DNA of 64,000 bases from a candidate division FCPU426 bacterium (GTDB lineage: Bacteria > Oederibacteriota > Muellerivitia > Muellerivitales > Muellerivitaceae): NCBI GenBank assembly GCA_963796105.1, contig CAWCKJ010000006.1:1-64000 (forward strand), written 5' to 3'. The notes below the pieces were generated by a model, which was not told the DNA's origin, ran no database searches, and saw only the letters and a list, made by a program, of their open reading frames with translations. This document shows positions 7,301 to 64,000 of this stretch, piece by piece. Within the stretch, counting starts at the first letter, position 1. Each line of letters opens with the position of its first letter. Both the position numbers and the translations under genes were made by a program.

Positions 7301-9260
7301 CACACCCACCGTGACGCCTTCGCCCACGCCCACTTCCACCCCTACCCTGACTCCGACGCCCACTCCGACTTCGACCCCGACGACGACGGCCAGTCCGACG
7401 CCGACCAATAGCCCCACCAACACCCCTACCTCGACAGATACACCGACCCCGACAGAAACGCCTCAATTTACCTACACGCCCACGGATACTTCGACCCAAA
7501 CCCCGACGCCGACTGTGACCAACACCCCGACGGATACCTTCACGCCGACACCCACATCTACGCCAACGAACACTTACACGGCCACGAACACGCCGACAGA
7601 GACCCCAACACCCACCATGACGAACACCCCGACGGACACTTTCTCGCCGACGCCCACGAATACGCCGACGAACACTTACACGGCCACGGACACGCCGACC
7701 GAAACCCCGACGCCGACAGTGACCAACACTCCGACCCCCACCAGCACTCCGACGGACACGTTTACGGCCACAAACACGCCGACGGAGACCCCAACGCCCA
7801 CCATGACGAACACTCCAACGGATACATTTTCTCCGACACCTACCAACACTTCGACGAACACATCTACGGTCACCAACACGAAAACACCCACCAATACACC
7901 CACGCTCACGAACACGCCGACTTCTACATTTACCCCGACGCCGACAGCTACGGCGACCAACACGCCCACAGCCACGCCGACGCTTACGCCCACTCCCGCG
8001 GCGGTATTGGCCTTGCAGAAGCAGGAATCGGAGTCAACGGGTTCCGCCGGGGATCAGGTGACCTACACCTTGACGCTGAACGTGGCCAACGGCATGGCGG
8101 CCGGAATGGCGGTTCAGGATCAACTTCCTCCCAACTGCACTTTCTCGGCGTTTGGGATCTCCCCGTCCGGCACGTCGGCGGTGACGAGCGTAACAGGGGG
8201 GGTGACGATGATGAACTGGACTCTGCCAGCGTTAAACCCCGGGAGCTACCAACTGACATACATGGTCTCCATCAACAACTTCACGCAGGCGGGACCGATC
8301 GTGAACTGCGCGGTGTTGAGTTATCCAGGAAGCTCGTCTTTAAGTTCCTGCGCGACCTTGATGGTGACGGGAAGCTACACGGTGAAGATCGGGGTGTATA
8401 ACGAGGCTGGGGAACTGGTGAAGACGATCCTGGTGACGCAATATTCCCAGCCCTTGGTGAACCTGCAGCTGCAGAACGGGAACCTGGTCAACGGGTTGAA
8501 CGATCCGATCCTGATCTACGACTTGAACCATGAAATCGGGGCCTGGGACGGGACGGACCAGAACGGGAACCCGGTGCCCAACGGGGATTACTACATCAAG
8601 GTGGACAATATCGATTCCTTCGGGGCGGACAAGAGCGTGGTATTGAACGTGGTGGTGAGCAGGTCGCTGGAGAAGGTGACGATCGACATCTACAACGAGG
8701 CGGGGGAGATCGTGGATACGCTGTACAGCCTGGTGGAGGACCCGCAGGGGACTGCCATCACGGGGGTGAAGCTGTCGGGGACGGTCTTGGAGCCCGGGTC
8801 ACCTACGGACGGGAACTTGGTCATCACGACGAACAACGGGGTAACGGCCACCTGGACGGGATATTCATCAAGTGGGGCGGTGGTCCCGAATGGGAAATAC
8901 TTCATCGAGGTGCACTCAACCGACGGAAAAGGCGGGGAGACGGTGATCGTGACATCGGTGATGGTGCTGAATAATACGAAACAAGCGGTTCCAAAAGTGT
9001 GGGCGTATCCGAACCCCTTAACTGGGGGATTCAGTCAAGTGGAGTTCCAGGCTTCGAATCCGGGCATCAACCTAACGGTGAGGATTTATGACCTGGCGGG
9101 TGAACTGGTGACGGAACTGAAGGGGGCAGGGGGGACGAGCCGGGTGACTTGGAACGCCTCTGGTATCTCCAGCGGGCTTTACATCGCCAAGGCCGAGCAG
9201 AAGGATCTCACGGGAAAAATCATCGCCAAACAGACAATCAAACTATTGGTGGAACATTAA
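4320..9260 (+). CDS. Giant Thr/Pro-stalk secreted protein 2 (1646 aa): signal peptide, DUF11-like domain with inserted lectin-like domain, Cys neck, stalk, DUF11 plus 3x FlgD-Ig/T9SS-CTD-like tail
   Basis: Signal peptide ends ...VPTLNA. DUF11 motifs are ITYTLVV and VTVTDPLP. The stalk spans ~5860-7997. Tail motifs are [11 protein letters not shown]...WDGTDQNG...NGDYYIKV and AYPNP...IYDLAGELV...SGLYI. Confidence 0.9.
6051..9254 (+). repeat. 3.2 kb near-identical direct repeat, copy 2 (stalk plus tail of giant gene 2)
   Basis: See 993-4197. Confidence 0.95.
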
Positions 9261-9613
9261 TTAGATGAAGCGCTTTAGGTATTTTTTTATTAGAAGTTAT
9301 AAAAGATAAGTTTATTTCATTGATTTTAACCTTTCTTTCCCGCTCGCATCAAAGATCGCCACTCCCGTACGTTTGTGGCCATAAATCGAAATGGCCAGGC
9401 AACCATGACAAATTCCAGATCGATGTATTTGGGAATCCTATCTTGAAATACCACTAATATTCGGTAAATGCAGGATTCCCTCTGCGGTTCCGGCGGCCAT
9501 TTGCGAAAAATTTTAAAAAGGCTGGTTCGATAGCCATGAACTGTCACGGCATTATTTGAAGACAAACGCACCAGTTATAGCGGAAAACTCATCCACCCGA
9601 AAACTAAATAATA

Positions 9614-10599
9614 TATGCTTATGCACAAAGTGACCGTGCTGTAATGGGTTTTGCTAAGGCACATGCGGTCAAAGCACGGTGAAATAAGGAATCGGGATCA
9701 TGACGACGGTTGAACCGATAGGCATATTCACTTAGATACCGGCCTAAATACTTAGCATCAACGCCATGATGAGTTCCAATGATCCAGGCCTTGGCGTTGG
9801 AAATGAACCGGTGTACCCAGGGCAACCAACTTTCCAACTCTTTCGGGTCATTGGCCATCACCCGGTAGTCTGCCTCCACTCCTTTGAGTTCACGCAAGGC
9901 TGGCGAAGCATCTGTGTTGAGGAAAGAGCCTTTTTCCATAGTCTGATTCACGAATTCCTGGCTCTCCCACTTGGTTTCCATAGCTACCTTCACCTTGGCA
10001 AAACCCGCTTTTTCCTTCTTGCAACCATTCTCATCCACCCATTCCTTGCTTTCCACCGCCACCAAGACTTCCACTTGGTTTTCCTTGGCCTTTTTCCCAA
10101 AAACCGCCCCATCCAACTCAATGACGCCCTTTAGAGTATAGCTTTCGTCCTTTTGCCTAAGACCTTCCCGGATCTTATGCAATAGAAGCCATGCCGAATG
10201 ATCCGAAAGATTTAAATGCCGCTTCAGTTCCAGGGCCGAAATACCCCGTTTGCCCTGCATCATCAAACTGATGGCCCTGACCCAGGTTAAAAGAGGCAGC
10301 TTGGAGCTTTCAAAAATCGTCCCGGCGCGAAGCCGAAGACGTTTCCGGCAATAGTCACATTCCCTCACTTCAGGCTTGGCCTGGTGTTGCCAGAAGCTTT
10401 CGCCCTCACATTGGGGACAAACAAAGTCTTTCCCGCCGAAACGGCATCTCCACACCCATTGGCGGGCTTCTTCTTCCGTGTGGATTTTCCTCAGAATTTT
10501 AATGCTTTTCATCCGCTGGTAGCTCATGTACCACCTCCCGTAGCGGACAGTATACCTATGTATTCCTTTATTTCAAGGGTCACTTAATACAGAAGCATG
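9614..10599 (-). mobile_element. IS1595-family element A (986 bp)
   Basis: 22 bp imperfect terminal inverted repeats: TATGCTTATGCACAAAGTGACC (9614-9635) against the reverse complement of 10578-10599, CATGCTTCTGTATTAAGTGACC. It is flanked by AAATAATA at 9606-9613 and 10600-10607. Confidence 0.9.
9619..10527 (-). CDS. IS1595-family DDE transposase (302 aa)
   Basis: N-terminal CPQC...CDYC zinc ribbon, GTIFESSKLPL, IELDG, NTD, and the C-terminal YLSEYAYRFNRR signature. Confidence 0.95.
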   Translation of the reverse strand: MSYQRMKSIKILRKIHTEEEARQWVWRCRFGGKDFVCPQCEGESFWQHQAKPEVRECDYCRKRLRLRAGTIFESSKLPLLTWVRAISLMMQGKRGISALELKRHLNLSDHSAWLLLHKIREGLRQKDESYTLKGVIELDGAVFGKKAKENQVEVLVAVESKEWVDENGCKKEKAGFAKVKVAMETKWESQEFVNQTMEKGSFLNTDASPALRELKGVEADYRVMANDPKELESWLPWVHRFISNAKAWIIGTHHGVDAKYLGRYLSEYAYRFNRRHDPDSLFHRALTACALAKPITARSLCA

Positions 10600-51653: not shown

Positions 51654-54600
51654 TTGAATTGGAATGATAAAAAAACGTTATTAGTAAAAGATATTCCAAG
51701 CCTACTAAAAGATGACTTGTTTTATAACCCCGTGAATTACTGGAAAAGCGCTTTATTTACTTTCAATAAATTTCTACAAAAAATCCTTTTATATCTTCAT
51801 TACTTAGTAAAAACATTCTTTTTTTTAAATCTCCAAATAAAATCGTTTTTTGATATCCGCCAGGCTCATTCAGTATTCGTTGTTATGGCTTGGGCGGCTT
51901 TTTTATTAATTTTTTCAACTACTTCCATACAAGCAACCCCTTCTTCCCTTACTGTAGTAGGCAATAACGTTGAGGCGACCGGAGGTTGTGTCGTTCACTT
52001 AAAAGGTGTTGATGTGGATGGCCTTGAATTTTCCCCTACTGGTTACGGCCCCATTAGTGGTGGCGGGTTTGGCAACGGGGGAGATACCCTGCAATTGGCC
52101 CAAGAGGCTGTGACAGCCTGGAAAAGTACCATTATCCGCCTTCCTCTCGACCAGGATTTTTGGTTTGGCTGCTCCAACGGAAACGGGTCTCCCACGGCTT
52201 CGGCATACCAGGGGATCGTATCCTCCATCGTCAATTATTGTTCAGGCCAAAACGTATACGTGATTTTAGACCTGCACTGGTCGGGGACTTCCTCCACGGC
52301 CTCAGCTCCCTGCGGCAGCGGGTGGGGTGGAGCCACGGCCCAGCATCAAATGGCGGACCAAAACGCAGTCACTTTTTGGAGCTCAGTCGCGGCGGCTTAT
52401 GCGAATAATCCCGCTGTCCTTTTCGACCTTTACAATGAACCTTACGATTCCGGCAATGACAATCCGCCGCCTATCGTAGATACGACCGGTTATAACACAT
52501 GGCTCAGTGGCGGCACACTCAGCGGAGCATCCTTTTCTACGCCCGGAATGCAAAAGTTGTTAAATGCTGTGCGCTCAGCAGGCGCCAATAATGTTTGCTT
52601 ATTGGGGGGATTATATTGGTGTGCTAACTTAAACGGACTTCCAGCCGCCTCAGTGACTAATAGAGGTAATGGAATAATATTTTCTGCGCATTTTTACTCA
52701 AATAATGACGGCAACTCCCCGGTCAGCTGGAATGCGGAAATACCTAGCTCGCTTTTGGCGAGTTACCCTGTATTCGTCGGGGAATTTGGGCCTTCCAATA
52801 ACACTTGCAACTCTAATGATAGTACTTTTGATACCAATGCAGTCTCCTGGATAAACAATACCAGTGGAATTGTTGGCGCAACGGCTTGGTCTTTTTCCAC
52901 GCAATCCTGCCCCAACCTACTGACCGGTTGGGTCACCAGCAGTACATGGGGATCTGCGGTATCCACCTGGCTGGCCACCCCTTATGCCGCGTGCAGTTCG
53001 CCTGTCCCGACCCCGACGATTACCGCCACGCCTAAACCTCCCAGCATCACTTTCACCAAGACCACCGGCGGGCCGACCTCGGGTTACAGTACCGGCGGCC
53101 CCATCACGTTGAATTTTACTTTATGCAACGCTGCTGGTTCATCCGCTCCTGCACCAGCGACAGTGACCGACGTGACAACGAACTATGGTTGGATGAGTTT
53201 CGATGGTCCCAATTACAGTTCCTGGACAGTGACAGTGGGCGGAAATCCTATCACCATTAATCCGTTGAACCAAGGTTTTCCAACAACCTGGACGGTCAGC
53301 TCAATTCCCGGAGGGGCCTGTGTAACCATTCCCTTATACGTACAAAACAATGGTTTCGCTGCCAGCCAATCCTGCCAAGTCATGACTGATTATGGTTCGC
53401 TTTCATGGCAGGGTGGTGGGCCTGTCACAAGTAACACCATTTCGACGACCATGGTATGCCTGACAGCAACACCCACATACACTTTCAGCTATACCCCAAC
53501 CCACACCTTTACTTATACCCCCACTTTTACATATACAGCTCTAGTGAACACATCGACTTTTACAAGAACGGCTACTCCGACCGCCACTAATACCTTAACG
53601 AATACCCGGACGAATACTCCTACCGCTACAACTACCTTTACTTCAACCCCGACTAATTCTCCCACCCGTACATGGACACTGACATCGACTCCCACTCCCA
53701 CGGTTTCACAAACTCCCACTCCGACCCGTTCACCAACTCCTACGATAACAAATTCATTTACACCGACAACTACACCCACAAACACATTGACCTTGACTCC
53801 GACAAGGACATCAACATCCACAAATACCATTACTTCTACATCGACACCCACGAACACTTCAACTCGAACACCGACACCCTCAGCCACGCCGACCCTCACC
53901 AGGACTCTAACTCCTACACCCACCACTACCCTTACGTCCACTCTGACAGTAACCCCTACACCTACTCCAACTAGGACTCCGACTCCCACACCCACCAACA
54001 CTCCCACCCCGACGTCCACGAATACGCCCACTCCCACACCCACAACAACCCCAACCTCGACTCCTACCAGGACTCCGACCCCCACGACCACTAACACCCC
54101 AACTCCAACCACAACATCTACCCCTTCACCCACTAATACCCCCACCCCCACCCCGACTAGGACCCCAACCCCGACTCCAACAACCACTCCTACCCCGACA
54201 CCCACTAACACACCTACCCCCACCCCGACCGTGACACCTACTCCCACACCAACCAGAACCCCGACTCCAACACCAACCAATACCCCAACTCCCACCCCCA
54301 CGAACACCCCGACAACGACGCCAACATCGACCCCAACCAGGACTCCTACTCCCACGCCTACCAACACCCCGACTCCTACCTCGACGACAACTCCTACTCC
54401 AACCCCCACCAATACCCCCACACCAACCTCAACCAGAACGCCTACTCCCACGCCTACGAATACTCCGACATCTACACCCACAACTACCCCAACACCCACT
54501 CCGACTAATACCCCTACCAGAACACCAACTCCCACCCCGACCCCCACGCCCACTACGACTCCCACCCCCACTCCAACCATTACCCCAACACCCACGAATT

Positions 54601-57251
54601 CTCCAACCGGGACTCAATCGCCCACGAACACCCCGACTCCTACCCCCACAACGACGCCAACACCGACCCTAACCAGGACGCCGACACCTACTCCTACTCC
54701 AACCCCCACCAATACCCCAACCCTCACGCCGACGAACACACCGACTCCCACACCCACATCAACTCCAACGCCTACCCCAACCAGGACGCCTACTCCCACG
54801 CCTACGAATACTCCGACATCTACACCCACAACTACCCCAACACCCACTCCGACTAATACCCCTACCAGAACACCAACTCCCACCCCGACCCCCACGCCCA
54901 CTACGACTCCCACCCCCACTCCAACCATTACCCCAACACCCACGAATTCTCCAACCGGGACTCAATCGCCCACGAACACTCCAACCATAACTCCGACTCG
55001 GACCCCGACCCCTACTCCAACTCCTACACCTACCATTACCCTCACACCAACGCCTACCAATACCCCCACAAGAACGCCAACCCCTACCCCCACGAATACG
55101 CCCACATCCACTCCTACTACCACCCCGTCACCTACTCCGACTAATACACCCACCCCAACCCCGACACCCACCAATACTCCAACTCCTACCCCTACGAATA
55201 CTCCTACACCCACTCTCACCACTACCCCGACCCCTACTCCAACAAGAACCCATACGCCAACACCTACCAATACGCCTACTCCAACACCCACCACCACTCC
55301 GACTCCGACCCCCACCAACACGCCAACCATCACCCCGACTCCAACCAATACGCCCACAGGAACCCAGTCTCCAACGAATACTCCTACCATCACGTCGACT
55401 AAGACCCCGACTCCTACTCCTACCCCCACACCGACGGTGACGCCTACTCCCACTCCTACTAATACCCCGACTTCTACACCCACCAATACGCCGACGCCAA
55501 CGAATACACCTACAAGGACGCCGACGAATACCCCGACCCCTACGCCTACCTCCACGCCAACTAATATCCCGACACTAACGATGACTCCGACTCCTACCAT
55601 CACTCCCACACCTACTAATACTCCTACAGGAACTCAATCACCCACAAACACGCCAACTATCACCCCGACCAAGACCCCAACCCCCACACCCACTTCCACG
55701 CTTACACCCACGACTACCCCGACCCCTACACCCACTCCGACGCCAACTCCGACTCCTACTCCCACCCTCACACCTACGCCGACCCCGACACCCACACTGA
55801 CGCCAACCCCAACACCCACTAAAACACCAACCCCGACACCAACTCCAACTCCTACCATCACCCCCACTCCCACGAACACACCGACTGGAACGCAGTCCCC
55901 CACAAGCACACCCACAATCACTCCGACTCCTACGCCAACACCCACTCCGACCCCAACGCCGACGATCACTCCCCCACCCACGCCCACCAATACCCCGACC
56001 AGAACACCGACTCCGACTCCCACACAGACTCTAACGCCTACACCTACCCCAACACCCACCCCCACGAATACCCCTACACCGACTCCGACTAGAACTCCGA
56101 CACCCACACTCACGCCTACTCCCACTCCCACACCGACCCCAACCAACTCCCCGACCACAACGCCTACTCCCACACTTACTCCCACGCCGACAATCACCCC
56201 CACTCCCACGAACACACCGACTGGGACTCAGCCGCCCACAAGCACACCCACGGTCACCCCTACCCCAACATCCACACCAACCCTGACCCTCACGTCAACG
56301 CTGACGAATACTCATACAGTCACACCGCCATACACTGCGACCCTGACTTTAACAAATACCTCCACAGTTACGAATACACCGACCTTTACCCAAACGAGTA
56401 CTTACACGAACACGAGGACGAATACTCCAACGATGACTTTCACACCCACCAACACATGGACATCAACGGCGACCTGGACGGTTACTTCGACGCCAACCAT
56501 TACACCCACAAGCACGAGTACAATGGTTACAGTCCAGGCTAATCAAGTTTCATCGTCTCCGACAACCCAGATACCCGGAGCGACAGGAGTGACGGTTCTC
56601 CAAGTCCAATTCACTAATCCAAGCTCCAGTACGGTTACACTGACCAGCCTAACGCTGACAGTTTCGGGCACCGGAAACCCCGTGGATATGGGACCCGTAA
56701 CACTGTTGGAAAACGGGGTGCCGATCGCCACGGGAATATTGGGTTCTGGAGCGGCCACCTTCACCATTAACAATACATTGGGATCGAATGGAAACACCTA
56801 CACGGTTGTAACCAGCTTTTCGACCTCGGCATCAGGAACTTACATCGTCAGCGCGGTGGGGGCTGCTGGAACCAACGGTCAGGCAGTAGTGGTGAACGGT
56901 TTACCGGTCACAGGCGCAGTCGTCGATGTGGCTACGCCGACAGCAACGTATACTTCTACGCTTGTTCCTAAACCCACTTGCGTAGGACCTTATCCAAACC
57001 CCGTGGAAAATGGTCCTGTTTCATTCCACCTATGGGTACCGGGAACGACTGTGGCGAAATGGTCCGTGTTTAGCTTATCCCTGAGAAAAATTGTAGGTGG
57101 GGAACTAACTATCTCGAATAACGGTGTAATTGCATGGGATTTAAAGGATCAATACGGAAAACAAGTGGCAAATGGCCTGTATTACGTGAGGGTTGAAATG
57201 CTTGGAACCCAAAACTTGAACAAGATATTTAAAGTCTTAATCGAGAAATAA
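51654..57251 (+). CDS. Giant Thr/Pro-stalk secreted protein 5: GH5 glycoside hydrolase head, Cys neck, stalk, Ig-like plus FlgD/T9SS-CTD-like tail (start uncertain, may be later)
   Basis: GH5 motifs IIRLPL, VILDLHW, FDLYNEP (acid/base Glu), SAHFY and VGEFG (nucleophile Glu). The tail reads PYPNP...[20 protein letters not shown]. Confidence 0.9.
54438..54979 (+). repeat. Apparently exact 194 bp direct repeat within the gene 5 stalk (54438-54631 and 54786-54979)
   Basis: The same sequence recurs at offset 348. It also shows as two identical antisense peptides in the ORF track. Confidence 0.88.
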
Positions 57252-58523: not shown

Positions 58524-59003
58524 GTGTCTTGTAAATCCTTTCGTTGTGAAATATTGTGACCGTAACCAACAGTAATTGAAGGGAGACGATATTATAACTT
58601 AAATTGAAAAAACAATACCTAAAGTGCCTCAAATCATTTTATCCGCTCCGTAAGCCTAATGGAATTAGGCAGGATGATTAAGCCTGGTACAAGTCCATGT
58701 TTCAAGAAAAACAGATGTCTAAAGTGTTATCTAGTGAATATTTAAAACTTCCTGAGATGTTGAATGGCGTATGATAGGCGGAAATTCGGTTTAGACAGTT
58801 GCGGCTTCTAAAGAGTAATTTCAAATTAAAAGGCCGAAATGGTAGGGTTTTAGTGATAATTTAAGGGATTCCCCCGGGTTTCTCAGCGCGTATAGTAGAA
58901 AACCAACGGGGCAAATCAAACGTCTAAATATTTGATAGATGCGCCAGTTGGTTTTTTAAAAATCCATGATTTTGTAATGAAGGATCTAACTAAAGGAATA
59001 AAC

Positions 59004-60152
59004 ATGAAGAAAATATTGGTTGTTTTGGCGTTTCTTTTAATGACGGTTAATCTTCCATTGTTTGGACAAGATTATAAGCACTCGGACGATGAAAAAAACG
59101 GTGGACATGGAGGAGTTAGGTCGGGCGGGGGAAAGAGCCATTTTCAGAAAGTACCCAAAAAAATCCACCCCGCGATTTCCCGCTCAAATTCACAAAACCG
59201 AAGAAACATGGGGGGGAATAACCAGACCGCTCCGGCCGTGGGGGGACATCATTTTAACAACTCCCGGGGGAATCAGACCTCAAGCGGTTCTTACAAGGGC
59301 GCCAAAGCTTCGCATCATTTCAACAATGTTTCTCGGGCGGTGCCTTCGGTAGGACGAATCAATCCTTCTTTGCAGCGTTTAGGCGTTAAAAATCTTCCTC
59401 CTGCATTCAAGGACCATCATCAAATTCTTCAAGCGGATCGGGCTCATTCCTCCATTCGTTATCCTGCGTCTGGCCCTCAGGGTAGGCCCCTGCATGCGGC
59501 TGTATTTGAACCGAGTGCCATGAATAACACTGTGGTAAGAAGCCATATGGGTTTGGTCAACACAAACATTGCCTTCAGGGCCCAGATTACTCATTTCAAC
59601 AACGTAGAAATCTTGCGAAATAATTACTATTGGCATTCCTACGGCGGTTTTAATTACTGCCATTACTATGATCCCTGGGGTTATCACTGGTATGGCTGGT
59701 ATTTGGGCAGTTCCTATTTCTGGACCCGGTATTGGAACAATTATTATTGGTGGTACGACCCAGTTTCCTTTAGATGGTGCTATTGGTGGGATGGAAATTG
59801 GTGGTGGAATAATCCGGCTCATGTGGAAGCGGCTTACGTTTACAATAATGGAAATTATATTCCCTCGGATTCCGCAAACACTGAAGCGCCCAGCGGAACC
59901 GCCGCAATAGAATATCGAAGCCAAGATGGATCCCGAATGGTGAAAATCGTCGGAACTGACGCCTTCCTTTATGACACGGCGGATACAGGCGTGGATAATA
60001 AACCGGTATTTTTGGGCTCGAACGTCACTAATGTGAAATTTTCTAAAACCAGTGACGGCAAACCTTTGCAGGTGATGCTGGAATACAATGATGGAACCTT
60101 CGGGTTGTTTGATGCCGACGGTAATCCAGCCGTTGGAAATTCAGGTAACTGA
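59004..60152 (+). CDS. Hypothetical secreted protein with a Gly/Asn/His-rich N-region and a Trp/Tyr-rich domain
   Basis: AAAGGA RBS, signal peptide MKKILVVLAFLLMTVNLPLFG, and a dense aromatic segment at ~59620-59815. Confidence 0.75.
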   Translation: MKKILVVLAFLLMTVNLPLFGQDYKHSDDEKNGGHGGVRSGGGKSHFQKVPKKIHPAISRSNSQNRRNMGGNNQTAPAVGGHHFNNSRGNQTSSGSYKGAKASHHFNNVSRAVPSVGRINPSLQRLGVKNLPPAFKDHHQILQADRAHSSIRYPASGPQGRPLHAAVFEPSAMNNTVVRSHMGLVNTNIAFRAQITHFNNVEILRNNYYWHSYGGFNYCHYYDPWGYHWYGWYLGSSYFWTRYWNNYYWWYDPVSFRWCYWWDGNWWWNNPAHVEAAYVYNNGNYIPSDSANTEAPSGTAAIEYRSQDGSRMVKIVGTDAFLYDTADTGVDNKPVFLGSNVTNVKFSKTSDGKPLQVMLEYNDGTFGLFDADGNPAVGNSGN

Positions 60153-60260: not shown

Positions 60261-60289
60261 TTGACAAATTTGAAACCCAAAGGTAGACT
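60261..60289 (+). promoter_or_regulatory. Sigma70 promoter of the Met/Cys operon
   Basis: TTGACA-17 bp-TAGACT. The predicted start (~60296) is just before the first RNA motif. Confidence 0.8.
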
Positions 60290-60300
60290 TCAATTAAGTC

Positions 60301-60393
60301 GAACGCGAGGCGTTAAGGTCCAACTTGCCCCGGCGTTTCCCAACCTTGAGAAACTCCTCAAGATAATGGGATTAACAGGGAGCTAAAGCGGTG
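60301..60393 (+). ncRNA. SAM-II-like riboswitch aptamer candidate 1 (long-loop variant)
   Basis: P1 is AACGC/GCGTT. The pseudoknot pairs TTGC-CCC with GGG(A)GC(T)AA. A hairpin is inserted in L3 (TCCCA..CTTGAG/CTCAAG..TGGGA). It lies upstream of metY, cysK and metX. Confidence 0.6.
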
Positions 60394-60413
60394 AAAGTTT
60401 ACGAGAAATTCCT

Positions 60414-60449
60414 AAACCCGAGCCGCTTTAAAAGCGACCCGGGTTTTTT
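60414..60449 (+). terminator. Intrinsic terminator of riboswitch candidate 1
   Basis: AAACCCGAGCCGCTT-loop-AAGCGACCCGGGTTT followed by a T run. Its CCGCTTT can instead pair with AAAGCGG (60385-60391). Confidence 0.75.
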
Positions 60450-60592
60450 GTTATCCGGGATTAATTGAAGCATTACGGCGAGGCTTTAACGGGTGGTTGA
60501 AAAGCTTGATTTTCTGGTTTTTAAGGGAAAATAAAGTATTTTTCCCCAACCCCTGGCAATACAGGATGATTCCACGTAGGAATGAACGTGTT

Positions 60593-60681
60593 GGAACGCC
60601 CTTGATTGAACCAACTTGCTCCGGCCGTTTCCATTCCGCGGTTTACCGCTTAGGGTGGAAAAACAGGGTGCTAAAGCGGTG
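60593..60681 (+). ncRNA. SAM-II-like riboswitch aptamer candidate 2 (long-loop variant)
   Basis: P1 is AACGCC/GG(C)CGTT. L1 is TGATTGAACC (canonical SAM-II has UGAUUUAACC). TTGC-TCC pairs with GGG(T)GC(T)AA and ACC pairs with GGT. The L3 hairpin is TTCCA..GCGG/CCGC..TGGAA. Confidence 0.7.
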
Positions 60682-60702
60682 AAAGATTAATGAGTTCCTC
60701 AT

Positions 60703-60740
60703 AATCCCGAACCGCTGAAAAGTGGTTTGGGATTTTTTTT
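60703..60740 (+). terminator. Intrinsic terminator of riboswitch candidate 2
   Basis: AATCCCGAACCGCT-GAAA-AGTGGTTTGGGATT followed by a T run (14 bp stem with 2 G-U pairs). Its ACCGCT can instead pair with AGCGGT (60675-60680). Confidence 0.88.
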
Positions 60741-60760
60741 ACCGATAAGGGGAGGAGCCT

Positions 60761-60949: not shown

Positions 60950-61081
60950 CTGTAGAGTTGGTTAATCCGGGACCGGACAAGCCGGACCCATCATTTACCC
61001 ATGCCGGATTGATTTACCAGTCCACTGGAAAATCAGGCAAAACCCCGTTGGAAATACATGGGGTAAACACGAAACATTTGA

Positions 61082-62386
<1,305 letters not shown>

Positions 62387-62394
62387 GGTGAAAT

Positions 62395-63330
62395 ATGGCC
62401 AAAATTTATGATGATATAACCAAAACCATCGGCCGCACCCCCTTGGTGCGGCTGAACCGAATCACGGAAGGAGCCGGGGCGACCGTTCTGGCCAAGCTGG
62501 AATCCTTCAATCCATTGTCCAGCGTGAAGGACCGCATCGGTTTGGCGATGATTGAGGACGCCGAGAAAAGGGGTGTCCTCAAGAAAGACTCCGTCATCAT
62601 CGAGCCCACCAGCGGAAACACCGGGATTGGCCTGGCATTCGTGGCGGCCGCCAAGGGCTACAAGCTCATCCTCACCATGCCGGAAACCATGAGCCTGGAG
62701 AGACGCCAGCTCTTGAAAATCTTGGGAGCCGAGCTGGTCCTGACCGAGGGGCCGAAGGGAATGAAGGGGGCCATCGCAAAAGCCGAGGAACTGGCTAAGG
62801 CAACTCCCAACAGCTTTGTTCCCCAGCAGTTCAACAATCCCGCGAATCCCGAAATCCACCGCAAGACCACGGCTGAGGAGATCTGGGCGGACACCGACGG
62901 CAAGGTGGACATCCTTGTTTCCGGGGTGGGCACTGGGGGAACCATCACGGGTGTAGCGGAAGTCATCAAGAAACGCAAGCCATCCTTCAAGGCCATCGCC
63001 GTGGAACCGGACGCCTCGCCGGTATTGTCGGGAGGGACAGCGGCCCCGCATAAAATCCAGGGCCTGGGTGCTGGTTTCGTGCCCGCGATCCTGAACCGGG
63101 AAATCATCGACGAGATCATCCGTGTGACGCATGAGGATTCAGGTGAGATCGCGCGCCAGCTTGCCAGGAAAGAAGGAATTTTGGCTGGCATTTCCTGTGG
63201 CGCGGCTGTTTGGGCGGCCATCCAGGTGGCCAAGAGGTTGGAGAACAAGGGAAAGACCATCGTTGTCATCGTGCCGGACACGGGCGAGCGATATCTTTCC
63301 ACCTGGCTTTTTGAGGAGGCCAAAGGATGA
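62395..63330 (+). CDS. cysK: Cysteine synthase A
   Basis: [31 protein letters not shown] and DTGERYLST. Confidence 0.97.
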
Positions 63331-64000
63331 ATGAGGCTGCGGACAAGCCCAGCAGACCTGGAATAGGGTTCGTCGAATCCAAGTCTTTCGAGCTTGAGGG
63401 TCTAACCCTTGAAAGCGGGGAGAGGCTGGGGCCTATCACGCTGGTTTACGAAACTTACGGGGCCTTGAACCCCGAAAAGACCAACGCCATATTGGTCCCG
63501 CACGCTTTTAGCGGCGACGCCCACGCCGCGGGCTGGCATCAGGGGGACGATGAACCAGGCTGGTGGGACGCAATGATCGGTCCCGGGAAGGCATTCGATA
63601 CCGACCATTATTTTGTGGTGTGTTCAAACGTTATCGGGGGCTGCAAAGGTTCCACCGGCCCCTCCAGCCTTAACCCCAAGACCGGCAAAACCTACGGTTT
63701 GGATTTTCCTCTTGTCAGCATCGGGGACATGGTGGACTGTCAAAAAAGGCTTCTGAAGCACTTAGGCATCCAGAAACTGCTTTCGCTTTCAGGCGGGTCC
63801 ATGGGCGGGATGCAGGTCCTTTCCTGGATGGCAAAATATCCTGAGGCTTTACAGAGCGCCATTCCCATCGCCACGGCGATCAAGCATTCTCCCCAGCAGA
63901 TTGCTTTCGACGAGGTGGGCCGCCAGGCCATCATGGCGGATCCTGATTGGAATAACGGGAATTATTATGGCGGTCCTCCGCCCGCCAAGGGGCTTTCGGT
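63327..64000 (+). CDS. metX: Homoserine O-acetyltransferase (runs off the window end)
   Basis: ATG overlaps the cysK stop. The frame reads ...LESGERL...YETYG.LN...[13 protein letters not shown]...GWWD.MIGPG...GGSMGGMQ. Confidence 0.95.

Follow-up and report, generated by a model that had tools for sequence, protein, structure and literature searches.

Toward its 3' end, the window (the whole 64,000-nt stretch of DNA that was analysed) carries a long leader followed by four open reading frames on the forward strand (Table 1), the last three being metY, cysK and metX. The sequence-only reading had assigned the downstream genes to the synthesis of Met and Cys, and this holds for metY, cysK and metX, while the ORF next to the leader is a small DUF2292/OscA-like one. 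The OscA identity of this ORF scores under the cut-off of the NCBIfam OscA model (36.6 bits), a search for relatives with solved structures found none, and a Shine-Dalgarno sequence is recognized ahead of it at 60749-60757. The segment between this ORF and metY (60950-61093) contains hairpins, with no Rfam match, and one short hairpin motif following the DUF2292 ORF is also present in L002 and L024 (three of six distinct loci). Upstream of the leader, the 406-aa ORF (58932-60152, +) includes a Trp/Tyr-rich segment and has no match in Pfam or NCBIfam, and a 1865-aa ORF (51654-57251, +) joins a part that, by eye, is glycoside-hydrolase-like, at the N terminus, to very long Thr-Pro repeats.

Table 1. 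Features of the leader and of the operon that follows it, in window positions.
Feature	Position	Strand	Evidence and details
Leader	between 406-aa ORF (ends 60152) and 62-aa ORF (starts 60761)	+	
Sigma-70-like promoter, TTGACA-17-TAGACT	60261..60289	+	10/12 consensus matches; transcription would start near 60296
Aptamer 1	60303..60391	+	model R1, 76.6 bits (copy in training set); P1 60303-60306 paired with 60333-60336; third strand 60310-60316, G at the U10 position (60312); UUGC 60325-60328; P3 hairpin about 60340-60371; GCUAAA 60382-60387; switching tail GCGG 60388-60391
Predicted antiterminator 1 (aptamer tail and terminator 5' arm, plus inner hairpin)	60384..60430	+	-14.5 kcal/mol
Intrinsic terminator 1 (two mismatches; weaker than is usual in the family)	60414..60449	+	-14.6 kcal/mol
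Actual 5' part of aptamer 2 (P1 strand; third strand including U10, U11, U12)	60475..60489	+	detected as a repeat
Structured insertion in L1 of aptamer 2, 121 nt	60490..60610	+	folds alone, z -2.2 vs 40 shuffles
Aptamer 2, 3' part	60611..60679	+	UUGC 60616-60619; P1 3' strand 60624-60628; then P3 hairpin; GCUAAA 60670-60675; tail GCGG 60676-60679
Predicted antiterminator 2	60672..60718	+	-16.2 kcal/mol
Intrinsic terminator 2, 14 bp and U run	60703..60740	+	-21.5 kcal/mol; terminator scan
DUF2292 (YezD)/OscA-like ORF, 62 aa	60761..60949	+	Pfam PF10055, 50.7 bits, over cut-off
metY-type O-acetylhomoserine/O-acetylserine sulfhydrylase	61094..62386	+	TIGR01326, over cut-off
cysK, cysteine synthase A	62395..63330	+	TIGR01139, over cut-off
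metX, homoserine O-acetyltransferase	63327..64000	+	gene cut by window end; 386 aa in the genome

The leader holds one motif twice, as had been noticed from the sequence, with the core copies at 60320-60391 and 60611-60679, and an exact 14-nt motif from the 3' part occurs at only two sites in the 4.98-Mb genome, both of them in this leader. The P3 hairpins inserted in the two copies are unlike in sequence, yet both fold. The proposal that the copies also share a 5' end, GAACGC, had to be abandoned. The GGAAC found at 60593 in copy 2 is part of a hairpin within the insertion, and the homolog from the same genus has no GAACGC there; GAACGC (from 60594) is thus ruled out as the P1 strand of copy 2, whose conserved P1 strand and UUU L1 loop are found 121 nt upstream, at 60475-60489. 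The insertion has a counterpart of 124 nt with the same two-arm fold in a genome of the same genus (L002), in which both units are kept at about 80% identity. Nor are the two copies equivalent, as copy 1 has a G at the position of U10.

Homologs of the leader are concentrated in, but not limited to, the taxonomic family of the window, with BLAST matches in 22 of its 24 genomes and in 2 of 16 genomes outside. From 40 loci in 21 genomes, 84 cores were extracted, and a relaxed pattern raised this to 88 cores in 50 leaders, of which 18 have a single copy, 26 are double and 6 are triple, with an array in 20 of the 21 genomes; the loci were chosen by likeness to the window and their flanks were cut, so these counts are no census. 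A covariance model (R1), built from 59 compact copies, recognizes three copies in this genome that are true ones, the third of which precedes cysH-cysD-cysN-cysG, and has matches in 37 of the 99 genomes of the phylum and in 28 of the 30 of the family. The two weakest matches in the phylum (L128, L129; E about 0.006) lack the core and are likely due to chance, and a fourth match in this genome (C8, 19 bits) was discarded, as it falls within a coding frame that resembles leuA. The third copy (G000:C11; L040:7590-7680, 7886-9745) is flanked by the cysH operon on one side and by a divergent sulfite-reductase-like gene on the other, and has the tail GAGG and one mismatch in the antiterminator.

A pattern scan of species genomes revealed 48 loci, in records titled Elusimicrobia, Acidobacteria, Ca. 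Firestonebacteria, one Ca. Obscuribacterium and unclassified bacteria. Model R1 has matches in 8 of the 151 genomes of the phylum to which one Elusimicrobia record belongs and in 4 of the 81 genomes of the class to which one Acidobacteria record belongs, while viral contigs gave no match to either the family pattern or a long-loop consensus pattern. In four Elusimicrobia-titled loci (L049, L050, L051, L071) and, by eye, in L044, a second conserved hairpin element is positioned just upstream of the aptamer, opening with the same bases as the aptamer P1 strand. Another locus (L123:2403-2464, -) combines an altered pocket, without GCUAAA, with a terminator, before an EAL-domain gene, and may be a decayed copy or a ligand variant.

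Across the family the elements follow one order: a P1 strand, G, one base, UUU, RA, a variable insertion, CCAAC, UUGC, one base, CC, G and the second P1 strand, then the P3 hairpin, AACAG-G-, GCUAAA and GCGG. A P1 of 4 bp is followed directly by P3, which only a few outlying copies lack (L122, L125, L166, L167). We take positions 9, 24 and 41 to be as in the metX SAM-II numbering. It had been expected that both helices would covary among homologs, and for P1 this is well supported. P1 is complete, with its four pairs, in 77 of 78 copies, a count that leaves out 6 of the 84 cores, in which the pattern missed the 5' strand, although a similar strand is present in each by eye. Among the five P1 pairs of the alignment of 59 rows, three show changes on both sides, and 99.7% of the cells pair; none of 500 shuffles reaches this covariation score, a test that overstates significance, as the homologs are related. 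P1 is also maintained across L1 insertions of more than 30 nt, found in 17 copies and ranging from 36 to 128 nt: it is kept, with matched changes, in all 17 (the shuffle mean is 10.4, and 0 of 10,000 shuffles reach 17, a figure inflated by kinship). Within arrays, such insertions are seen in 16 of 34 later copies and in 0 of 31 first copies (strict set; the sequences are kin and not independent).

The evidence for P2 is of a different kind. The UUGC and GC(U)AA strands are complementary in both window copies, but within the family the helix is invariant except for the pair 23-42 (numbering here and below follows the metX SAM-II structure as in PMC3764141), so the expectation of covariation is borne out only at this pair, by double changes in three divergent copies. 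Over 140 matches, the pair is C-G in 125, G-C in two, U-A in one and C-A in 11 (one of these a pattern artefact), with one further artefact; the 10 real C-A matches can pair only if the A opposite C23 is bulged. Both G-C copies (L165:1501-1558 and L166:1501-1555) also change the third-strand G8 to A, as expected if G8-C23-G42 form a triple as described for SAM-II in PMC3764141, while copy 2 of the same-genus genome has an A at position 8 with no change at the pair 23-42, which counts against this co-change. The proposed pseudoknot thus draws on these three divergent copies and on likeness to solved structures, most P2 pairs being unvarying. The suggested extension of P2, through CCC and GGG, is probable: it fits 77 of 78 copies as well as the divergent L165, in which it does not compete with P1, but its columns barely vary, and in one subtype the C's can pair in P1 instead.

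As to the ligand pocket, the 13 bases U10, U11, U12, U20, U21, G22, C23, G42, C43, U44, A45, A46 and A47, all of which, U10 included, are fully conserved in SAM-II according to PMC3764141, are present without exception in copy 2, and 12 of them in copy 1, in which G replaces U10. U11 and U12 are found in 78 of 78 copies and U10 in 70, with the proviso that the search pattern itself favours such bases. P3 is followed by two near-invariant A's, candidates for the L3 adenosines that in SAM-II dock in the minor groove of P1. The original call of an H-type pseudoknot of the SAM-II/V type with long loops is supported.

The genes that follow the motif point to SAM. The targets close to Met and SAM include metY, metX and cysK in the window and metH at L041, L166 and L167, and other copies precede genes for a SAM hydroxide adenosyltransferase (a SAM hydrolase; L165) and a methyltransferase (L156). 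At L124, a copy of the translational type with a U23-A42 pair (577-643, +), upstream of a TPR protein gene, is directly preceded by an Rfam SAM-I/IV riboswitch (394-502; 62.7 bits versus a cut-off of 41.1). Judging from this gene context (metY, metX, metH, SAM hydroxide adenosyltransferase, methyltransferase) and from the SAM-I/IV neighbour, SAM is the likely ligand of both copies. However, the wider targets comprise cysD, cysH, cysA, genes for a sulfate-binding protein, a sulfite-reductase-like gene and an SsuA-type transporter locus, and further 1-Cys peroxiredoxin, SrpI encapsulin, DsrE, ExbB and porins, and that many of these are sulfur uptake and stress genes, not SAM synthesis genes, counts against this assignment. 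In Bacillus, sulfate assimilation is controlled by SAM through SAM-I riboswitches. In this genome, a search with model R1 combined with a gene check detected no copy at metK or metH, which also counts against the SAM assignment. The homocysteine methyltransferase domain of its metH is matched in two pieces (G000:C4:1279727-1280612, +), one with an internal TAG, possibly owing to a frameshift or an assembly error. In Acidobacteria-titled records and the respective class (L048, L062, L063, L168-L170), the motif precedes a gene for a protein of 89-99 aa with no match in the Pfam and NCBIfam models scanned, a candidate for a sulfur- or SAM-linked function.

The switching part of each unit is its 3' tail, which, as had been pointed out, can pair in each copy with the 5' arm of its own terminator. 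That each copy has its own terminator stands firmly for copy 2, whose terminator was called by the scan, and less so for copy 1, whose terminator has two mismatches and was missed. Counting terminators of -8 kcal/mol or better, 74 of the 84 cores in the family have one downstream, and an overlap of its 5' arm with the antiterminator predicted to form with the GCGG tail is seen in 71 of the 84. When folded, copy 1 with a free tail adopts the antiterminator at all lengths tested, and with a blocked tail the terminator. In copy 2 the antiterminator is the best fold until about 60728 is transcribed, and beyond that point the terminator wins whether the tail is free or blocked, so that the control by copy 2 must be either kinetic or leaky. 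As to the promoter, a near-consensus site had been noted before the leader and is indeed present. By itself it is not above chance (three promoter-like sites found versus 2.0 expected), but in the relatives 36 of the 49 copies that are first or single have a similar promoter at the same position, as against 0 of the 29 later ones, so that arrays share one transcript. The model, put forward from the start, of two terminator-linked OFF switches in one transcript is supported.

A mechanism can be proposed along these lines. With no ligand, the 3' tail (AAAGCGG) would pair with the CCGC of the terminator 5' arm once this is transcribed, producing the predicted antiterminator, while with ligand bound the UUU strand, by analogy with the SAM-II/V structures, would dock in P2's major groove, and the pseudoknot would hold the tail and leave the terminator free to form. 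Ligand binding would in this way turn transcription off, a direction suggested by SAM-V, in which the 3' end is needed for binding (PMC6061858). The metY-cysK-metX operon would then be read only at low SAM, and RNA polymerase, having to pass two checkpoints, would meet with a sharper or deeper repression, this being the dose response expected of the double leader, with the strong terminator 2 requiring kinetic control. As copy 1 combines G10 with a weak terminator, the two switches may differ, and probably they are tuned differently, with the full pocket, the insertion and the strong terminator on the side of copy 2.

Other platforms also occur in the family. At L165, which precedes the SAM hydroxide adenosyltransferase gene, there is no terminator, and the copy could be an ON switch given this downstream gene. 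The Shine-Dalgarno sequence is overlapped in a few copies (L124, L126, L127, L153); at L153:1501-1590 (+), it is the 3' end of the second tandem copy that overlaps the one of a porin-like gene, making a terminator-plus-translation pair like SAM-II/SAM-V. A subtype with no U run (L012:357-426, L008:2579-2649, L007:327-397, L009:473-553) continues, ahead of porin-like genes, into a conserved structure of greater length that is probably another kind of expression platform.

Overall, sequence, conservation, covariation and gene context make it most probable that the leader carries two complete riboswitches of a SAM-II/SAM-V-type fold outside Rfam, each likely binding SAM and predicted to exert OFF control over metY-cysK-metX through its own terminator. 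One may ask whether G10 changes what copy 1 senses, i.e., whether this copy binds another adenosyl-sulfur metabolite, or SAM with a very different affinity, making the leader a two-input or two-threshold gate. Of 78 copies, 8 retain G10; they come from 6 genomes, and 4 are first copies that precede metY operons and share weak terminators (-13.5 to -15.5 kcal/mol). There is also a precedent in a SAM-I pocket variant reported to sense spermidine (PMC10853860). Still, the bases contacting the adenine, the sulfonium and the amino acid end are all retained in copy 1, other metY leaders have U10 in the first position (L005), and the four G10 first copies may represent one inherited change. In SAM-V, moreover, the equivalent base, U8, reaches the ligand only via U47, by a single hydrogen bond, pairing weakly with this adenine-binding U and making no contact with SAM (PMC6061858), which is why weaker SAM binding appears likelier than a new ligand, and we regard a gate of this kind as improbable.

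The possibility that only one unit switches, either with copy 2 misfolding due to the insertion and terminating constitutively or leakily, or with copy 1 decayed and always read through, appears very unlikely to us. It would agree with the low probability of the long-range P1 of copy 2 (about 0.1 in the pseudoknot-free ensemble of 60470-60679, although this P1 is present in the minimum-energy fold of 60470-60745), with terminator 2 winning at equilibrium, and with the mismatches in terminator 1 and the loss of U10 in copy 1, but not with the retention of both units and the insertion in the same genus, with the covarying P1 in 17 of 17 long-insertion copies, or with antiterminator 2 being the best fold up to the point at which about 60728 is transcribed. 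Least credible, to the point of being nearly dismissible, is that the motif is no metabolite aptamer but a site for a protein antiterminator answering to sulfur status: the copies are very highly identical, platform included, and the regulon is broader than SAM synthesis, but the conserved bases map one to one onto the SAM-II/V ligand pocket, and copies also occur on translational platforms and beside a SAM-I/IV riboswitch. The most far-reaching scenario, a distinct class of the SAM-II/V fold that runs the whole sulfur-starvation regulon of an uncultured lineage in arrays of two or three, with the G10 subtype reading another signal, the leader acting as a natural two-input gate made of two versions of a single aptamer, and the L1 insertion timing the second decision, is in our opinion a long shot.

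A SAM-II/V-type aptamer family with good covariation is entirely missed by the present Rfam models, and, if the preferred reading of two SAM-responsive OFF switches is correct, the SAM regulons of these lineages are invisible to standard annotation. The family also offers natural test cases for the SAM-II fold, in G10 versus U10, in the co-change of positions 8, 23 and 42, in L1 insertions of 0 to 128 nt, and in single, double and triple arrays on both terminator and translational platforms, and it tags porins, DUF3034, DsrE-like proteins and the small Acidobacteria protein as likely sulfur-supply genes.

With respect to known riboswitches, the proposed check against the Rfam models of SAM_alpha, SAM-II_long_loops and SAM_V was made, and none of them scores the tandem: scans of the leader and of 50 homolog loci at E up to 10 gave no SAM-II/V match, RF00521 has none over the cut-off in the genome, RF01726 has none at E up to 10 at the three copies of this genome, and RF01826 does not reach its gathering cut-off. 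SAM-I (RF00162) has no match in the genome at E up to 1. Matches to NsiR1 and trpB are below cut-off and cover the terminators only, and likenesses to cobalamin, T-box, ZTP and SAM-I motifs, seen by eye, have the wrong order of elements and no model score. In the literature outside subscription journals, we found no paper joining SAM-II with Elusimicrobi or with sulfate assimilation, none, among the papers listed, linking a riboswitch to three candidate-phylum names, and, among the titles listed, none naming the variant. Two of the original premises need revision. The known classes were said to act mostly on translation, but most members of SAM-II act on transcription (PMC6061858) and, in alpha- and beta-proteobacteria, are most often terminator-linked (PMC2258182). 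Nor is the tandem a novelty, as PMC9481103 reports 44 SAM-II tandems, in some of which each copy has a terminator, along with 149 SAM-II/SAM-V pairs and two SAM-II after SAM-I/IV. The novelty lies in the variant of the aptamer and in the way it is employed, for the most part as arrays, across operons of sulfur supply.

By its sequence, the family would work like SAM-II and SAM-V and shares features of both, while fitting none of the RF00521, RF01726 and RF01826 models. With SAM-II (RF00521; metX structure 2QWY, as presented in PMC3764141), it shares the element order of the H-type pseudoknot, the G-x-UUU third strand, UUGC and GCUAAA, the 3' tail as the switching element, terminator platforms and tandems, and it differs in the missing Rfam score, a P3 that looks obligatory in most copies, an invariant G.G atop P1, the probable CCC/GGG extension of P2, L1 insertions of up to 128 nt and the G10 subtype. 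SAM-V (RF01826; metY structure 6FZ0, PMC6061858) likewise has a 4-bp P1 with the P3 hairpin right after it, adenosines before P2, a P2 that continues below the ligand site, and metY as a target, but it is translational, as opposed to the terminators at both window copies and after 74 of 84 cores here, and the P1 and P2 sequences differ, again with no Rfam score. The long-loop SAM-II (RF01726; PMC2864571), reported from Bacteroidetes and marine DNA, are similar in that additional bases separate P1 from the UUU strand and that L3 carries long insertions, while in the alignment rows compared L1 has only short insertions (about 19 nt in one row) and the pocket U does not vary. Finally, the arrangements described in PMC9481103 likewise place several complete SAM switches ahead of one operon, some with a terminator each and with mixed platforms; in contrast to those cases, arrays are the majority here (32 of the 50 leaders examined, 6 of them triple), and in each genome they stand before many operons for the uptake, assimilation and storage of sulfur.
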